Sequence record: NC_047749.1
Direction: 5' to 3' (one strand)
Source of the DNA: Escherichia phage DT571/2
Length of the DNA: 64,000 nucleotides
The position numbers and the translations under genes were made by a program. Under the pieces are notes generated by a model, which was not told the origin of the DNA, ran no database searches, and saw nothing but the letters and a program-made list of their open reading frames with translations. Positions 15,008-42,975 of this stretch are shown here, piece after piece; positions within the stretch are counted from its first letter, which is position 1; each line of letters starts with the position of its first letter.

Positions 15008-15882
15008 TAAAGAATCCTCTGTATGCCACAGCTATCTTCTCGAAGCGTGGTAAATGTTGTGATTTTGCCAGTTTCATCATTAACTTGCGCAACCGTCAAC
15101 TGCCCGTTGAAGACACCGCCAGTATCTAGGTAAACACGATTCTGGTATAAAATAGGGTAAGGTACTCCAGTATGCCCATGAAACACAAAGTCTACTCCAT
15201 TAACTGGAGGTACTTCTACCATGTATTTTTCTTTAAATCCTGCATAACGCTGGAAGTACGGGTGTTCCTCACTATTTTTGGACAAATGGAAGCCTATTTC
15301 TTGTATTACATCTCGATCCCATAAGTATGGTTCAACATGGTATTCAGGATGGTCATGTGGGTCTTCCTTAGCTGCTTCTACTTGTGCAATAAGGCTATCC
15401 CATACTGGGGTTTCTACTTCGTTACCGCATTCTTTGTACGTAAAAGGTACACCACCATGAACAACACCATATTTCTTGCCACGATGCAGCACAGTCAGAA
15501 ATACTGGAAGTTTTTCAGCCATGTCTTCGGCAATATTTTTAATGGTATCTGTATCTAGTTCATTCATAGCCCACATACCACCGTTATACATCCAGTTAGT
15601 CCAATCTCCTCCAATCATAAACTGGTCGTGGTTTCCACGAACGCTACAGAAACGTGGATTATACAGGAATTTGGCTAAAACTTGCAGATTCTGTGTGCCT
15701 CGATCAATTAAATCTCCCACGCATACAACGCAATCTTTCTTGCCGTTATAGCCAGCTAATTGTAGTGCATCTTCTAGCAAATCGTTGCATCCATGAATAT
15801 CACCAACAAAGAATAAGTTAACATCATCAGGTACTACTAGTGTTTTATGTACATTAAATTCTTTTTTCATAATTATTCCCAA
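15007..15882 (-). CDS. serine/threonine protein phosphatase (PPP family)
   Basis: 291 aa; GDIHGC, GDLIDRG, GNHD motifs. Confidence 0.8.
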   Translation of the reverse strand: MGIIMKKEFNVHKTLVVPDDVNLFFVGDIHGCNDLLEDALQLAGYNGKKDCVVCVGDLIDRGTQNLQVLAKFLYNPRFCSVRGNHDQFMIGGDWTNWMYNGGMWAMNELDTDTIKNIAEDMAEKLPVFLTVLHRGKKYGVVHGGVPFTYKECGNEVETPVWDSLIAQVEAAKEDPHDHPEYHVEPYLWDRDVIQEIGFHLSKNSEEHPYFQRYAGFKEKYMVEVPPVNGVDFVFHGHTGVPYPILYQNRVYLDTGGVFNGQLTVAQVNDETGKITTFTTLREDSCGIQRIL

Positions 15883-16118
15883 ATAACATTTAAAATAGTT
15901 GTACCATAGTTATTAGATAGTTTGAGAGTATAACCCTCTTTATAAATGGCTTTCATAGCTTCATAACTAATTTCATCACGGTTAAACTGCACATAAGAAC
16001 CACCAATCTCCACAGAAGAAACTATTCTCTTTTTAACATACTTATATGGTTTCTTTCTACTCTTGAGAAGAGTAGCTCTATTAACCCTAGCTAAATGTTT
16101 TGCTTGTTCCGCTAACAT
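15873..16118 (-). CDS. hypothetical protein
   Basis: 81-aa ORF. Confidence 0.45.
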   Translation of the reverse strand: MLAEQAKHLARVNRATLLKSRKKPYKYVKKRIVSSVEIGGSYVQFNRDEISYEAMKAIYKEGYTLKLSNNYGTTILNVIWE

Positions 16119-16215: not shown

Positions 16216-16506
16216 TTAATCTTCTGGACTATCATCCAGGAAATTTTTAATGGCTTCGTGCATAGTTTCCTTACGAAGCTGACGTCCAATCAAAATATGA
16301 TTAGCTTCTATTCGACCATTAGGTAAGCGATCTGCCAGAACTACTACAGGTACTTGGCGCACACCAAATTTCTGCATTAATTCTGCATTATCAGTCTCTT
16401 TATGGACTTCCAAATTATAGTCATTGACTACTTTATCAAATACTGGCTCAAACATTTTGCAAGGATTGCAAGTGGAACCTTTTAATAGATATACTAATTT
16501 ACTCAT
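16216..16506 (-). CDS. thioredoxin/glutaredoxin-like protein
   Basis: 96 aa; CxxC active site CNPC. Confidence 0.65.
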   Translation of the reverse strand: MSKLVYLLKGSTCNPCKMFEPVFDKVVNDYNLEVHKETDNAELMQKFGVRQVPVVVLADRLPNGRIEANHILIGRQLRKETMHEAIKNFLDDSPED

Positions 16507-16930
16507 AGTTATTAATGGCCTCTAAGAAGTTTTTCATAGTTTTTACTGTTGCGGTGCTCAGATCAAGATTTACACCCAAACACTCGGTTAGTGCTTCCTG
16601 ATAAGGAGCCTTTAATCTGCCTTCTGGGACTTCTACCTTTTTATATTCTTTATTTTTGACCTTTTTAATCATAGTCTCTAGTACAAGAAGTGGTAATTTA
16701 GCACCTTCAATATCAGTACCCAAAAGTTCAGTTAAAATTTTATTAAGATCAAGACGAGTTAACTTTTTGCCCTTAGACATAGATGCACCTACCTTTGTAC
16801 CAATAGATTTTTCCGCTTTCTTTTCGAGCTTTTTGTACTCAGGAGAGTCATGATCACGGAGTGCAATGTTTAGCTCGTAATGTGGTATACGAAAATGTTC
16901 CGCCATTTGAGTGTAGAAACGATCAGACAT
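16499..16930 (-). CDS. hypothetical protein
   Basis: 143-aa ORF. Confidence 0.5.
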   Translation of the reverse strand: MSDRFYTQMAEHFRIPHYELNIALRDHDSPEYKKLEKKAEKSIGTKVGASMSKGKKLTRLDLNKILTELLGTDIEGAKLPLLVLETMIKKVKNKEYKKVEVPEGRLKAPYQEALTECLGVNLDLSTATVKTMKNFLEAINNYE

Positions 16931-17500: not shown

Positions 17501-17914
17501 TTAAACTAGTTCGACATGACCGCCATCATAGGTACCACGTTTTATTTCGTCGTGATAGTCTCCCGAAGCATTCCAATCAGCACCAAAACGAAGTTTAATG
17601 CCTAGTTCTTTACCAGCTTGTTCAAAAGCCTTTTTAATTGCCCAAAATGCTTCTAAATCATTCCAATCAATTTTGCCATTAATATATGGAGCAAAATCGA
17701 TAGCATCCCCAGTAATATGTTTGCTTTTACTAGGATCTTTTAGAAATGAAGTACCATTAGCAATGTTCTGGGCACTTTGTGCTACTGTACGAATACCTTG
17801 CACGATTGTGAAATCGTACGGAGATAATTCTAAAGCCCTACGAGCTACTTTTTGTAGTTCAGGCTTAACGGTTGCTAATTGTTTTTCGCTATTTTTACCA
17901 AATTTAAAACTCAT
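17501..17914 (-). CDS. endolysin, L-alanyl-D-glutamate peptidase (M15-type, EndoT5-like)
   Basis: 137 aa; LAS/M15 zinc-peptidase motif SKHITGDAID and C-terminal His. Confidence 0.8.
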   Translation of the reverse strand: MSFKFGKNSEKQLATVKPELQKVARRALELSPYDFTIVQGIRTVAQSAQNIANGTSFLKDPSKSKHITGDAIDFAPYINGKIDWNDLEAFWAIKKAFEQAGKELGIKLRFGADWNASGDYHDEIKRGTYDGGHVELV

Positions 17915-18594
17915 ATTGACCTACCTAAAGATCTCTGTTGTGGGGAACAGAGCTTTGCTAAATATTCCTTGAACTGTTCAGAATCGGCTGTATCTACCGG
18001 ATTATCTTTCCAAGCAATACCAATGTACCCAGCATAGATATTATTTAGATTGAAGTATGGACAAGTGTATATGTACTTAAAAGTAACGTTTTTAAACGCA
18101 GGTATATTTAACCCCATATATTTATTTACTCTTACACGTAAATCCGATACGTAGTTAAAGCCCTCTAAATGACGTCTGTATAATTCAGACGTTTTATTTA
18201 CCGCTTTATCGGCCAAGTCAGCCCTATCTAATTGCGCATTACTTTCCCATGCAATAATATTGGAATAATCATTGATAGCATCTGGTTTATACTTGACTAC
18301 AAAAACAGCATCTGCACCCGTCTGAGAGAAGAGAACCATGCTCTTTTCCCTCGCCACATTAGGGAAGTTATCTATCCTCTGGGTTTGTAAATCTTGTAAA
18401 ACTGCAGACGTGGAAAAAGTCTTTAAGAATGACATCACTTCACTAGTATGACTAACAAATAAGAAAATAATGACAGCAACTAAGATAGTTAGCAGACGTT
18501 TAAGAAGCGATGCTGGGTCTTTCGCTTCTTGGAGCAGTACTGTTAATAATTGTAAGAACTTTTCCAATTTGTAACCTCCTCTAACCATTACCAT
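17911..18594 (-). CDS. holin-like membrane protein
   Basis: 227 aa with TM helix, immediately upstream of endolysin. Confidence 0.55.
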   Translation of the reverse strand: MVMVRGGYKLEKFLQLLTVLLQEAKDPASLLKRLLTILVAVIIFLFVSHTSEVMSFLKTFSTSAVLQDLQTQRIDNFPNVAREKSMVLFSQTGADAVFVVKYKPDAINDYSNIIAWESNAQLDRADLADKAVNKTSELYRRHLEGFNYVSDLRVRVNKYMGLNIPAFKNVTFKYIYTCPYFNLNNIYAGYIGIAWKDNPVDTADSEQFKEYLAKLCSPQQRSLGRSI

Positions 18595-18724
18595 TATACT
18601 AATTTTGGAGGAAAATTACAATGTGTTTTTAAAGATTTTCTTTGGAGCACAAAATTATGTCGTTGTCAAGAAGAATTTTAGATAAAAGAAAAGCCAGAGT
18701 CGTTAAACCCTGGCTTAAAATTAC

Positions 18725-19324
18725 TTACTCTTCGTTGTGCTCCTCGGATTGAGGTAACTGAGCTTTATTATATTGCTCAGATCGATATTTTGCCAAGATT
18801 TCAATACGCTTATGGATTTCCTCGCTATCTAGATAGATGTTTTTGTTGTCTTTTACCATCTCGTCGATTTCATCTATTGAGAAGAACGGATAGTAGACAT
18901 CTAGCATCATATCTTCTACGAACTTGTTATAAGATTCATAGGCTTTCTTGATTTCTTGACCTTTCTCACAGAACCCGCCAGAGAACGTGTGTCCCATTAG
19001 CGTAGCATGTGGATGTACTACCCATCCATGACAAGATAAGAAAATTGTGCAGTAAGCAGAAGCACTAGGACCAATCAGGTGTCCTATAACTGTTCCACGG
19101 CAATTAGCAATTAAGTTAGATAACTGTGCAGCGGTATCAACATAGCCCCCAGGGCCATTAATCATCAGATTAATTTCGTCGTCCTCATTTGCCTGCATAA
19201 GTACCATTGATAAATCACGGTATTCATCCGGCGGACCAAGTTCTTCATCAAAGAAAAAGGTATACTCGTTAGATTGGCGAATGGAGTGAAACAGGTTAGT
19301 CTTTTCTTCTTTTTTATTAGTCAT
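18725..19324 (-). CDS. ClpP-like serine protease
   Basis: 199 aa; INGPGG and GPSASAY...HPHATLMGH align with ClpP Ser and His motifs. Confidence 0.65.
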   Translation of the reverse strand: MTNKKEEKTNLFHSIRQSNEYTFFFDEELGPPDEYRDLSMVLMQANEDDEINLMINGPGGYVDTAAQLSNLIANCRGTVIGHLIGPSASAYCTIFLSCHGWVVHPHATLMGHTFSGGFCEKGQEIKKAYESYNKFVEDMMLDVYYPFFSIDEIDEMVKDNKNIYLDSEEIHKRIEILAKYRSEQYNKAQLPQSEEHNEE

Positions 19325-19336
19325 AGCAATCCTTGA

Positions 19337-20089
19337 TTATCCAACTAGTGGTTCTAGCTCTAAGTCACAGAAGTTATATACTTCTAGTTTAAGGTTATTG
19401 ATACCATTGAATTTATTAACTAATTCGTGAGTAATATATTTTGCAGGAATACCACTTTCAGATGAATGATCTGATTTAATAGTGAACTTCTGCTCAGCGG
19501 GCACTATATTTACTAGTAAAGAATCCATATCTAAATGGTTCGTTTCTCTGAGTAATTCTCCTTCATTGGGGAATCTCACATCTGTTATTACGGCGACATC
19601 TGGGTCGTCTTTAGCGATGGATTGCTCCAGAATTATGAGCCAAATGCGTTCATGTACCAGCTGCCTTCCTAGCTCTGTTCCTACGAGCTGTAACATTTTT
19701 CTCGGAGAAATAAATAAACTATAAAGTCCGTCTTCTTTATTCTCTGAGATAAGTTGCTGAGGATTAAGATATTTTTCCTCAAAAATCGGCCAAACGTACG
19801 AGAAGTCTTCAAACTTATTGATACCGTACTTAGACCATACGTCTCTAGCTCGCTCCAATTGAGATTGTGTGATCGTAAACCATTGGTCAATCTCTTTTCC
19901 CCTGCGCTCTCCTAGAAACTCTGGAGTTACACCGAGGATTACGGATGCAAGTTCATAAACGGGCTTAGCAAAACTATAACGACGGGGTAAACACGTTGGG
20001 TACATATCATTACACCAATCGATAATTAATTTTGCAACAGTGTCTTTTCCAGAACCAGCCCCGCCATGTAAACCTACTAATACTGACAT
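19337..20089 (-). CDS. dnk: deoxynucleoside monophosphate kinase
   Basis: 250 aa; P-loop GGAGSGKDT; size matches T5 dNMP kinase. Confidence 0.75.
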   Translation of the reverse strand: MSVLVGLHGGAGSGKDTVAKLIIDWCNDMYPTCLPRRYSFAKPVYELASVILGVTPEFLGERRGKEIDQWFTITQSQLERARDVWSKYGINKFEDFSYVWPIFEEKYLNPQQLISENKEDGLYSLFISPRKMLQLVGTELGRQLVHERIWLIILEQSIAKDDPDVAVITDVRFPNEGELLRETNHLDMDSLLVNIVPAEQKFTIKSDHSSESGIPAKYITHELVNKFNGINNLKLEVYNFCDLELEPLVG

Positions 20090-20442
20090 TAATCTTTCCT
20101 ATTGTTAATTGGTGGATAGTAAACTAAGCAACGTTTTTCTTGTAAATCTTGGCGGTAGAAGCAAACCATACTAGTCAATCGTGAGATATATGAATATTCT
20201 GCCTCCCGGCATTTTGCTAACATATTCCAATCTTTATATGGTACAACAACGACTACGCCATCTTCCCCATTTGTAGCTAATTTCTTTTCAAACTTAAAGT
20301 CAAAGCTACAAGGCTGAAGTCCTTTAGGCCAATCCACATGGGCTGTTGGTAGCTCATGTGATGGCTCTGATACTACCGTTTCTGCACAGCCTGTGATTGT
20401 GATTGCGGCTGCGAGCAGTATTCCACGCTTCCAGAAAGACAT
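20089..20442 (-). CDS. lipoprotein, o-spanin-like
   Basis: 117 aa; signal peptide with lipobox ITGC; overlaps upstream gene end. Confidence 0.55.
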   Translation of the reverse strand: MSFWKRGILLAAAITITGCAETVVSEPSHELPTAHVDWPKGLQPCSFDFKFEKKLATNGEDGVVVVVPYKDWNMLAKCREAEYSYISRLTSMVCFYRQDLQEKRCLVYYPPINNRKD

Positions 20443-20816
20443 GCTAATCTCTCCTCAAATTCTTTACTCTGCTTTTTAGCAATTAATGTAACCAATCCAG
20501 GCTTTGCAGCTATAATATCTTGACGACTAAGTGCTTTATCAAGCTGACTAATTTTCTTGTCTAGATCTGCTTGCGAAACATTATTCATAGTGAAATACTG
20601 ATTCATTCTAGTCTCACGAAGTTCACTCTCAGCCCTCACATTATTAAGGGAGGTTTCTAGAGTAGAGATCTTTTTAGTAGCTACTGCAAGATCACCTGAT
20701 AGAGTCTCAACCTTATTAAGTAAGTGATAAGCACCGAATCCGATGCCTATCGCTAGACCTGCTCCCAGGATAAACCATTTACCTTGCCATAGAGAACTAA
20801 TAAAGTTTTTTATCAT
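20373..20816 (-). CDS. i-spanin-like protein
   Basis: 147 aa; N-terminal TM helix then coiled coil. Confidence 0.55.
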   Translation of the reverse strand: MIKNFISSLWQGKWFILGAGLAIGIGFGAYHLLNKVETLSGDLAVATKKISTLETSLNNVRAESELRETRMNQYFTMNNVSQADLDKKISQLDKALSRQDIIAAKPGLVTLIAKKQSKEFEERLACLSGSVEYCSQPQSQSQAVQKR

Positions 20817-42213: not shown

Positions 42214-42975
42214 CTACACCTTCCCCATGTCTTTAAAAATATCGTAGAATGCTTTAGACTCAGCAGAACGAACGTTATCAATCAATTCGATCATTGAGAA
42301 TGGGGCATTTTCATACTTCTCATAAACTTCCATAAGAAGTGCTAGACCTGAGTCACCTTTAATGTCTTTTTGGGCTATATCTCCGCAGATAATTAAACGG
42401 CAGTCTTGTCCTACACGAGTTAGGAGACAAACCATTGCCTCAACGGAAATATTCTGAGCTTCATCGACAATTACATAGGAGTTGTTGAAAGTTCTGCCAC
42501 GAGCATGTTCTATAGCCAAAAATTTAATTTTCTGACGTTCGACATATCCCTTATAGGCGTGATCACCGATGGCCCATTTCATACCATCAGCTATTGGCTC
42601 CAACCAAGGCTCTAGCTTTTCTGCTAGATCACCAGGAAGCATACCAAGAGACTTACCTAGAGGTTCATTAGGACGGACGAGAATCACTTGCTCAATATCT
42701 GAGTGAATGTCTACGAGTTCCTGAGCTGCAAGAACGGACGGAATAAAGGTTTTGCCAGTACCTGGCTCACCGATACCCACAGTCACTGTGTTGTTCTTGA
42801 TCATATTGATATATGATTTTTGCTCGCGGTTTTTACCTACTAGGGATTTAGCAACTGGGTTGACGTAATCATTAGAAAAATCAGCCTGAATTACGTTACT
42901 CTCATATTTGTTGCCACGCTTTCTTGAACCATTGCGGTTCTCTCTTTTTTGACGTGCTTTTCCCATAAATAACAC
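42214..42975 (-). CDS. phoH: PhoH-like ATPase
   Basis: 253 aa; Walker A GEPGTGKT and PhoH blocks. Confidence 0.85.
   Translation of the reverse strand: MLFMGKARQKRENRNGSRKRGNKYESNVIQADFSNDYVNPVAKSLVGKNREQKSYINMIKNNTVTVGIGEPGTGKTFIPSVLAAQELVDIHSDIEQVILVRPNEPLGKSLGMLPGDLAEKLEPWLEPIADGMKWAIGDHAYKGYVERQKIKFLAIEHARGRTFNNSYVIVDEAQNISVEAMVCLLTRVGQDCRLIICGDIAQKDIKGDSGLALLMEVYEKYENAPFSMIELIDNVRSAESKAFYDIFKDMGKV

Follow-up and report, generated by a model that had tools for sequence, protein, structure and literature searches.

The clp gene of Escherichia phage DT571/2 (sequence record NC_047749.1), carried on the minus strand of the 64,000-nucleotide stretch of DNA analyzed here (hereafter, the window), encodes a serine peptidase with the ClpP fold (MEROPS S14-like) and stands last in a spanin-dnk-clp transcription unit that is transcribed after second-step DNA transfer. 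The best reading of its product, to which we assign a probability of about 0.5, is that of an accessory protease that would work autonomously, that is, independently of an ATPase. A preliminary description of the window had called this open reading frame (ORF) an early-region ClpP-like serine protease; the observation was confirmed and the interpretation attached to it was partly supported. The gene is not new and has long been annotated: its product is 100% identical (tblastn) to clP of phage DT57C (YP_009149818.1, "putative ATP-dependent Clp protease") and corresponds to T5.042 of phage T5. The same gene is present as ORF45 in BF23 and as bas33_0141 in Bas33, and the synteny with DT57C is identical. 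The label clP or ATP-dependent protease was found in hundreds of T5-like genomes, but the "ATP-dependent" part of it was not supported by the sequence features that we examined.

Similarity of the clp protein to ClpP was well beyond chance. The Pfam model PF00574 (CLP_protease) matched residues 41-139 with an E value of 4.4e-8 and a score of 33.7 bits, above the gathering cut-off of 20.2 bits, and hhalign, with a profile of the phage family set against one of cellular ClpPs, gave a probability of 97.7% and an E value of 1.4e-12 over residues 23-172. The closest sequence match among solved structures was Coxiella ClpP (3Q7H; E value of 6.9e-6). An AlphaFold2 (AF2) model built from 49 sequences had a predicted local distance difference test score (pLDDT) of 90.2 and a predicted template modeling score (pTM) of 0.83. 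When the model was compared with PDB structures by Foldseek, all of the top 50 matches were ClpP, with a probability of 1.00 and template modeling (TM) scores of 0.60-0.66; superposition covered approximately 160 columns at a root-mean-square deviation (rmsd) of approximately 2.6 Å. Bacterial ClpP (E. coli ClpP, PDB 1TYF and 3MT6) is thus alike in fold (TM of approximately 0.65, rmsd of approximately 2.6 Å), whereas the sequence identity between the two is only approximately 18%. The C-termini also differ. By the AF2 model and the alignment, residues 167-189 of the clp protein form one long helix where ClpP has a C-terminal helix and strand, and the short acidic tail behind this helix shows little conservation even inside Tequintavirus. 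The preliminary description had considered the protein shorter than ClpP, which did not hold: it has 199 residues compared to 207 for the E. coli precursor and 193 for the mature form, it lacks the axial-loop segment at the N-terminus, and it ends in a different, longer helix.

Membership in the ClpP fold did not extend to membership among canonical ClpPs. The equivalog model TIGR00493 scored 17.1 bits, far below its cut-off of 308.6 bits, and PRK00277 scored 23.4 bits against a cut-off of 249 bits. The NCBIfam model for ClpP-related head maturation proteases, NF045542 (Clp_rel_HeadMat), also remained below its cut-off (40.3 compared to 120 bits), with the ClpP model at 23 bits, and phrog_1684, a head maturation protease family, scored 76 bits. 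A full-length match was obtained with phrog_1827 (E value of 2e-90; residues 1-198 aligned to positions 5-201 of the 202-position profile). In sequence, cellular ClpP is therefore more distant from the clp protein than the ClpP-related head maturation proteases are.

The active site was examined in four independent alignments (phmmer, MAFFT with E. coli ClpP, MAFFT of 49 sequences, and hhalign). The E. coli reference sequence was identical to PDB 3MT6, and its residues are given in precursor numbering unless stated to be mature; counts for the phage family refer to 174 representatives. In all four alignments, Ser89 aligned with Ser111 (mature Ser97), His112 with His136 (mature His122), and Asn162 with Asp185 (mature Asp171). 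The protein thus has a Ser-His-Asn arrangement rather than the Ser-His-Asp triad of canonical ClpP. The oxyanion-loop motif, Gly59-Gly60, was retained, and it was invariant across the family, as were Ser89 and His112 (each 174/174). Arg173, in the helix just past the third triad position, was found in 171 of the 174 representatives and in the clp protein, which therefore carries the complete family signature (Ser89, His112, Gly59-Gly60, and Arg173). A counterpart of Arg173 is absent from cellular ClpP, making this residue specific to the phage family. The preliminary description had stated that the ORF aligns with ClpP around the catalytic Ser and His, which the four alignments bore out, but did not mention the third triad residue; it had also stated that catalytic residues missing on careful alignment would speak against a protease, and here the outcome was divided, with the nucleophile and the general base present and the acid replaced by an amide.

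Across the family, position 162 was Asp in 131 representatives, Glu in 25, Asn in 8, Thr in 7, and another residue in 3, such that 156/174 had an acidic residue. The Asn was clade-specific, being encoded by AAC or AAT in Tequintavirus and Epseptimavirus, while Asp was present in Sugarlandvirus (GAT) and in the Pectobacterium and Vibrio T5-like phages. Asn162 was retained through synonymous AAC/AAT changes, and pairwise ratios of nonsynonymous to synonymous substitution rates (dN/dS) were 0.07-0.11. The protein, with its Asn, is under strong purifying selection. Two nearby residues, D159 and D166, were considered as stand-in acids and rejected; the Asn clade has Glu or Asn at position 159 and Asn at position 166, so that neither is likely to substitute for the missing Asp.

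Listeria ClpP1 has the same Ser-His-Asn triad; its isolated heptamer is inactive and becomes active once a partner ring aligns the triad, and it does not bind AAA+ partners (PMC9257651). By analogy, the change from Asp to Asn in Tequintavirus and Epseptimavirus would be expected to leave the active site weakened or conditional rather than abolished. The likeness to Listeria monocytogenes ClpP1 (PDB 4JCQ; heterocomplex 4RYF) comprises both the triad and the lack of chaperone docking sites. The differences are that the match in phmmer (E value of 0.01) was weaker than those of ordinary ClpPs and that most of the phage relatives keep Asp or Glu. A paired ClpP2-like gene or partner ClpP gene was not found in the phage.

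The elements by which ClpP docks ClpX and ClpA have been defined as a hydrophobic patch (Y74, Y76, and F96) and the N-terminal loop, and mutation of the patch abolishes chaperone-dependent degradation (PMC4416901). In the alignment, the three aromatic residues of E. coli ClpP correspond to N52, M54, and N74 of the clp protein, so that the binding patch for the IGF/LGF loops of ClpX, ClpA, or ClpC was not found; these columns were mostly polar over the phage family. E. coli residues I104, L128, and L203, which we take to line the pocket, align with H82, H104, and A178. The N-terminal segment (MTNKKEEKTNLFHSIRQSN) places only 19 residues ahead of the first strand, compared to 25-33 in cellular ClpPs. 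These residues were charged and had low pLDDT, and in the family the segment ranged between 15 and 46 residues with no conservation of sequence; neither an axial loop nor a gate was recognized. Cooperation with host Clp ATPases had been part of the preliminary description, and it was not upheld: because the docking patch is replaced and there is no N-terminal axial loop, the usual partnership with host ClpX or ClpA appears unlikely. The distance from His112 to Asn162 was 50 residues, compared to 49 in E. coli ClpP, and the handle for ring stacking is therefore retained.

These features suggest an autonomous protease. The clp protein would assemble into ClpP-like rings, and the rings would cleave peptides or unfolded polypeptides by themselves; action without host ClpX or ClpA is proposed because the axial loops and the aromatic patch are both missing. 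The ClpP-related prohead proteases, the nearest sequence relatives, are thought to act free of an ATPase in this way. These head maturation proteases (NF045542, phrog_1684, and phrog_94) are the nearest relatives outside of the protein's own family, are phage-encoded, and similarly lack ClpX-docking features, which suggests ATPase-independent action. The clp protein would then serve as an accessory factor in infection, in host takeover or in protein turnover.

Several points weigh against this proposal. The loss of the docking patch is read from the sequence alignment, and the oligomeric state, activity, and substrates are what we infer for the family as a whole. The T5 protein might be inactive alone, because the Asn triad leaves the isolated Listeria ClpP1 heptamer inactive. 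A low-level presence in BF23 virions could point to a capsid-associated role. Finally, a CRISPRi-ART screen of T5 scored T5.042 as "Not Fit" with 6 guides and p = 0.90 (PMC11879866 supplement). Knock-down of this gene is thus without measurable harm to the phage in the laboratory, where it is dispensable, and the absence of a phenotype does not fix a physiological role. A 2023 study of BF23 described the function of the protein as "currently unknown" (PMC10644984). Our search of the literature on ClpP and ClpP-like proteases encoded by phages yielded nothing of relevance, and no match was obtained with the PADLOC defense models; there is therefore no link to known defense systems. The gene is nonetheless 1 of only 8 genes with greater than 80% identity over 185 Tequintavirus genomes in a 2025 comparison (PMC12639943).

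The clp gene lies in the early region, between dnk and holin. All genes of the region are on the minus strand, and the order of transcription is i-spanin, o-spanin, dnk, clp, terminator, promoter-like site, holin, and endolysin (Table 1). The stop codon of dnk lies directly ahead of the clp signals, and the two genes are therefore tightly coupled. A hairpin resembling an intrinsic terminator begins 9 nucleotides past the clp stop codon and would close the spanin-dnk-clp transcription unit. Transcription has been measured for phage Bas33 (HildyBeyeler), whose clp is 97.5% identical, by RNA sequencing 20 min after infection in two replicates (PMC13250531 supplement). Transcripts per million (TPM) were 1984 and 1849 for o-spanin, 2012 and 1746 for dnk, and 2041 and 1678 for clp, which was nearly equal to dnk; holin (1072 and 845) was approximately two-fold below clp, and endolysin had 898 and 686 (PMC13250531). 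This pattern agrees with dnk and clp being transcribed together and with a transcription boundary behind clp. Each of the five values dropped approximately 100-fold when second-step DNA transfer was blocked (PMC13250531), and clp is therefore not a pre-early gene.

Two further signals were observed near this boundary. A sigma-70 promoter-like site, TTGGCA-18-TATAAT (18796..18767, minus strand; 11 of 12 consensus matches), lies within the 3' end of clp, approximately 50 nucleotides upstream of the terminator; if active, it would yield either a very short transcript or read-through into holin and endolysin. The ATG of the mechanically called holin ORF, at position 18594, falls inside the predicted -10 element of the downstream promoter-like site, and the TTG at position 18567, which follows GAGGAGG, looks to be the correct start.

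Table 1. Features of the clp region, the phage's own PhoH gene, and locations of related genes in other phages. Positions are those of the window unless another locus is named.
Feature	Position or location	Strand	Basis or remark
clp coding sequence, ClpP-like serine protease, 199 amino acids, ATG start	18725..19324	minus	uninterrupted ORF, ORF list
Shine-Dalgarno AAGGA, 5 nucleotides 5' of clp ATG	19330..19334	minus	read from sequence
dnk stop codon, clp ATG 12 nucleotides further on	19337-19339	minus	read from sequence
Intrinsic-terminator-like hairpin, 11-base-pair stem then TTCTTTTATC (T-run)	18691..18716	minus	terminator scan
Ser89 codon TCT, predicted nucleophile	19058..19060	minus	4 alignments; codon read from sequence
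His112 codon CAC, predicted general base	18989..18991	minus	4 alignments
Asn162 codon AAC, at ClpP catalytic Asp position	18839..18841	minus	4 alignments
i-spanin	20373-20816	minus	ORF list, DT57C annotation
o-spanin	20089-20442	minus	ORF list, DT57C annotation
Deoxynucleoside monophosphate (dNMP) kinase (dnk), adjoins clp upstream	19337-20089	minus	ORF list, DT57C annotation
Promoter-like site TTGTAA-17-TATAAT, own site of holin/endolysin	18621..18593	minus	
Holin, TTG start 18567, 218 amino acids	ORF 17911..18594	minus	annotated start of relatives
Endolysin	17501-17914	minus	ORF list
PhoH of the window's phage, 23 kilobases from clp	42214..42966	minus	Pfam, 208 bits
Vibrio nt-1 (T4-like) homologue	between frd and uvsX		
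PAK_P2 homologue	among small hypothetical genes		
Rheinheimera Barba homologue	between PhoH and Dam		
rV5-like LTH01 homologue	near anaerobic ribonucleotide reductase and Dam		
Campylobacter F379 homologue	between topoisomerase and helicase		
Pseudomonas REC homologue	after PhoH		
PhoH-clp adjacency loci	L012 2686-4052; L004 4198-5720; L048 5313-6465		

The kinship with head maturation proteases raises the possibility that the clp protein descends from ClpP-related prohead proteases, continues to be packaged, and processes a virion or injected protein. The protein was in fact detected in purified BF23 virions, by 3 peptides and at approximately 4% of the intensity of the prohead protease (PMC10644984), and the variable acidic or helical C-terminal tails of its relatives resemble scaffold-like extensions. 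However, the same preparation also held dihydrofolate reductase, a non-structural protein (PMC10644984), which suggests carry-over, and the C-terminal tail is poorly conserved even among the tequintaviruses. A dedicated head maturation protease is also already present: in DT57C, php lies between the capsid and the decoration and portal genes, approximately 72 kilobases from clp, and matches Peptidase_S78 with 68 bits. This HK97-type prohead protease (T5 pb11, DT57C php) is likewise a serine protease of the same phage, but it is unrelated to the clp protein in fold and in sequence (BLASTP E value of 0.35). The clp protein differs from the ClpP-related head maturation proteases in scoring below their cut-off and in not being encoded beside portal, scaffold, or capsid genes; its neighbors are dnk, the spanins, holin, and endolysin, in the early region, and it is co-transcribed with dnk. 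Clp is not the head protease, and the non-head context given in the preliminary description stood up, both in the window and in the contexts of the homologues. Given, in addition, that knock-down had no effect on fitness, we consider an auxiliary capsid or virion role to be unlikely.

A second possibility is that the change from Asp to Asn in the T5 clade killed catalysis, leaving a pseudo-protease or decoy that acts by binding, for example by sequestering a host factor. The clade-specific Asn in place of the catalytic Asp, the inactivity of isolated Ser-His-Asn ClpP1, and the absence of a knock-down phenotype would all agree with this. In opposition, the Asn clade shows strict conservation of Ser89, His112, and the Gly-Gly motif at a dN/dS of approximately 0.07, which would be unexpected after a loss of catalysis, and a Ser-His-Asn triad is catalytically competent when properly aligned (PMC9257651). 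A loss of activity of this kind is therefore improbable in our estimation.

Equally speculative is a conditional, ClpP1-like ring, in which the Ser-His-Asn site would be switched on only when the ring is stacked; the partner would most likely be the host ClpP heptamer, and host ClpXP or ClpAP would be re-tooled by the phage during infection as a result. In a second variant of this proposal, a ring without a gate, comparable to drug-activated ClpP, would degrade unfolded host proteins without an ATPase. We regard this proposal as doubtful.

The remaining alternatives fared worse. A canonical ClpP substitute, in which a phage barrel would dock the host ATPases ClpX or ClpA and so divert ATP-dependent degradation, would account for the usual database label of "ATP-dependent Clp protease" and for the retention of the ClpP fold, the Ser, and the His, and expression of host clpX and clpA persists in Bas33 infection. 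It is nevertheless very unlikely, as the three aromatic residues of the patch have become Asn, Met, and Asn, with polar residues over the family, when mutation of the patch abolishes chaperone-dependent degradation (PMC4416901); moreover, the axial loop is absent from an N-terminus that ranges from 15 to 46 residues, and the protein falls widely short of every ClpP equivalog model (17 compared to 309 bits for TIGR00493). The clp protein could also be a ClpP1-type subunit, an impaired Ser-His-Asn heptamer that would have to stack on a ring of host ClpP to become active, forming mixed ClpXP or ClpAP with altered activity or specificity. The two oddities that define Listeria ClpP1 are present, namely the Asn at the third triad position and the lack of chaperone-binding sites, the handle length is preserved (50 compared to 49 residues), and the Listeria ClpP1/2 heterocomplex 4ryf was among the top structural matches. 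However, 4ryf was no better a match than ordinary ClpPs, and with only approximately 18% of its residues identical to E. coli ClpP the clp protein is not expected to offer that ring a matching interface. Asp or Glu is found in most of the family, other Demerecviridae with the gene at the same genomic position among them, and the basic function of the family therefore needs no templating partner. Such a subunit is highly improbable.

The last alternative, a protease that processes or degrades a holin, spanin, or regulator to set the timing of lysis, draws on a spanin-dnk-clp-holin-endolysin order that is conserved in Tequintavirus, Epseptimavirus, and Sugarlandvirus and on the overlap of clp with the endolysin gene in Vibrio T5-like phages, but there is little reason to credit it, as Demerecviridae genomes are collinear in general, homologues outside of the Demerecviridae are not beside lysis genes, the clp protein lacks both a signal peptide and a membrane segment while holin and spanin are largely in the membrane or periplasm, and a terminator and separate promoter part clp from holin and endolysin.

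In the Vibrio T5-like phages, dnk is followed by a hypothetical gene, clp, and endolysin, with no holin annotated between the last two. The homologue in Vibrio phage D232 (L005, 4899-5861) has 320 residues, with a C-terminal extension of approximately 130 residues that is strongly acidic and of low complexity. That the Vibrio extension might be a fused holin was considered and rejected, as this acidic, low-complexity tail contains no membrane segment. Long C-terminal tails, acidic or helical and differing in length, are a recurrent feature of the family.

The window region itself is typical of its group, with 98.7% DNA identity to Escherichia phage Gostya9 and 98.4% to DT57C, and it matched 453 phage records, chiefly Tequintavirus and Epseptimavirus. 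The protein family reaches much further. Relatives were found in 1,331 phage records (tblastn) from many unrelated lineages, and an exhaustive HMMER search at E values of 1e-10 or below yielded at least 954 clusters at 50% identity. A word-index search showed a sharp fall in score between family members, at 119 bits or more, and cellular ClpPs, at 54 bits or less. In each of the unrelated phages examined, which represented six lineages (Table 1), the homologue was located among early or DNA-metabolism genes and not among head genes.

In REC, Barba, and IMG/VR contig L048, a gene for a PhoH-like ATPase was directly upstream of the ClpP-like homologue on the same strand. The two genes overlap by 4 nucleotides in Pseudomonas REC (Otagovirus), and PhoH is 2 kilobases upstream of the homologue in L046 and L047. 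This adjacency was not found in Demerecviridae, PAK_P2, nt-1, LTH01, or F379; PhoH and clp are both among the 8 most conserved Tequintavirus genes. PhoH and clp might be functionally linked, or their proximity might be a mere clustering of accessory early genes, and we treat it as a lead only.

One other label in the early region merits comment. An 81-residue ORF, the homologue of T5.036 (approximately 15871..16116 of the window, minus strand, corresponding to 16395-16640 of DT57C), is named "major head protein" in the RefSeq record of DT57C, in which the real capsid gene is at 90239-91615. This name is probably an annotation-transfer error.

The clp protein belongs to a large phage family, with relatives in more than 1,300 phage records, and its gene is among the most conserved in T5-like phages. 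The present analysis contributes no new gene; its additions are the Ser-His-Asn site specific to one clade, the lack of the docking elements, the size of the family, and the consistently non-structural context of that family. If the protein is an autonomous or host-templated protease in host takeover, regulated proteolysis would be added to the tools of virulent phages, and the misleading "ATP-dependent" label, copied through phage annotations, would be corrected.

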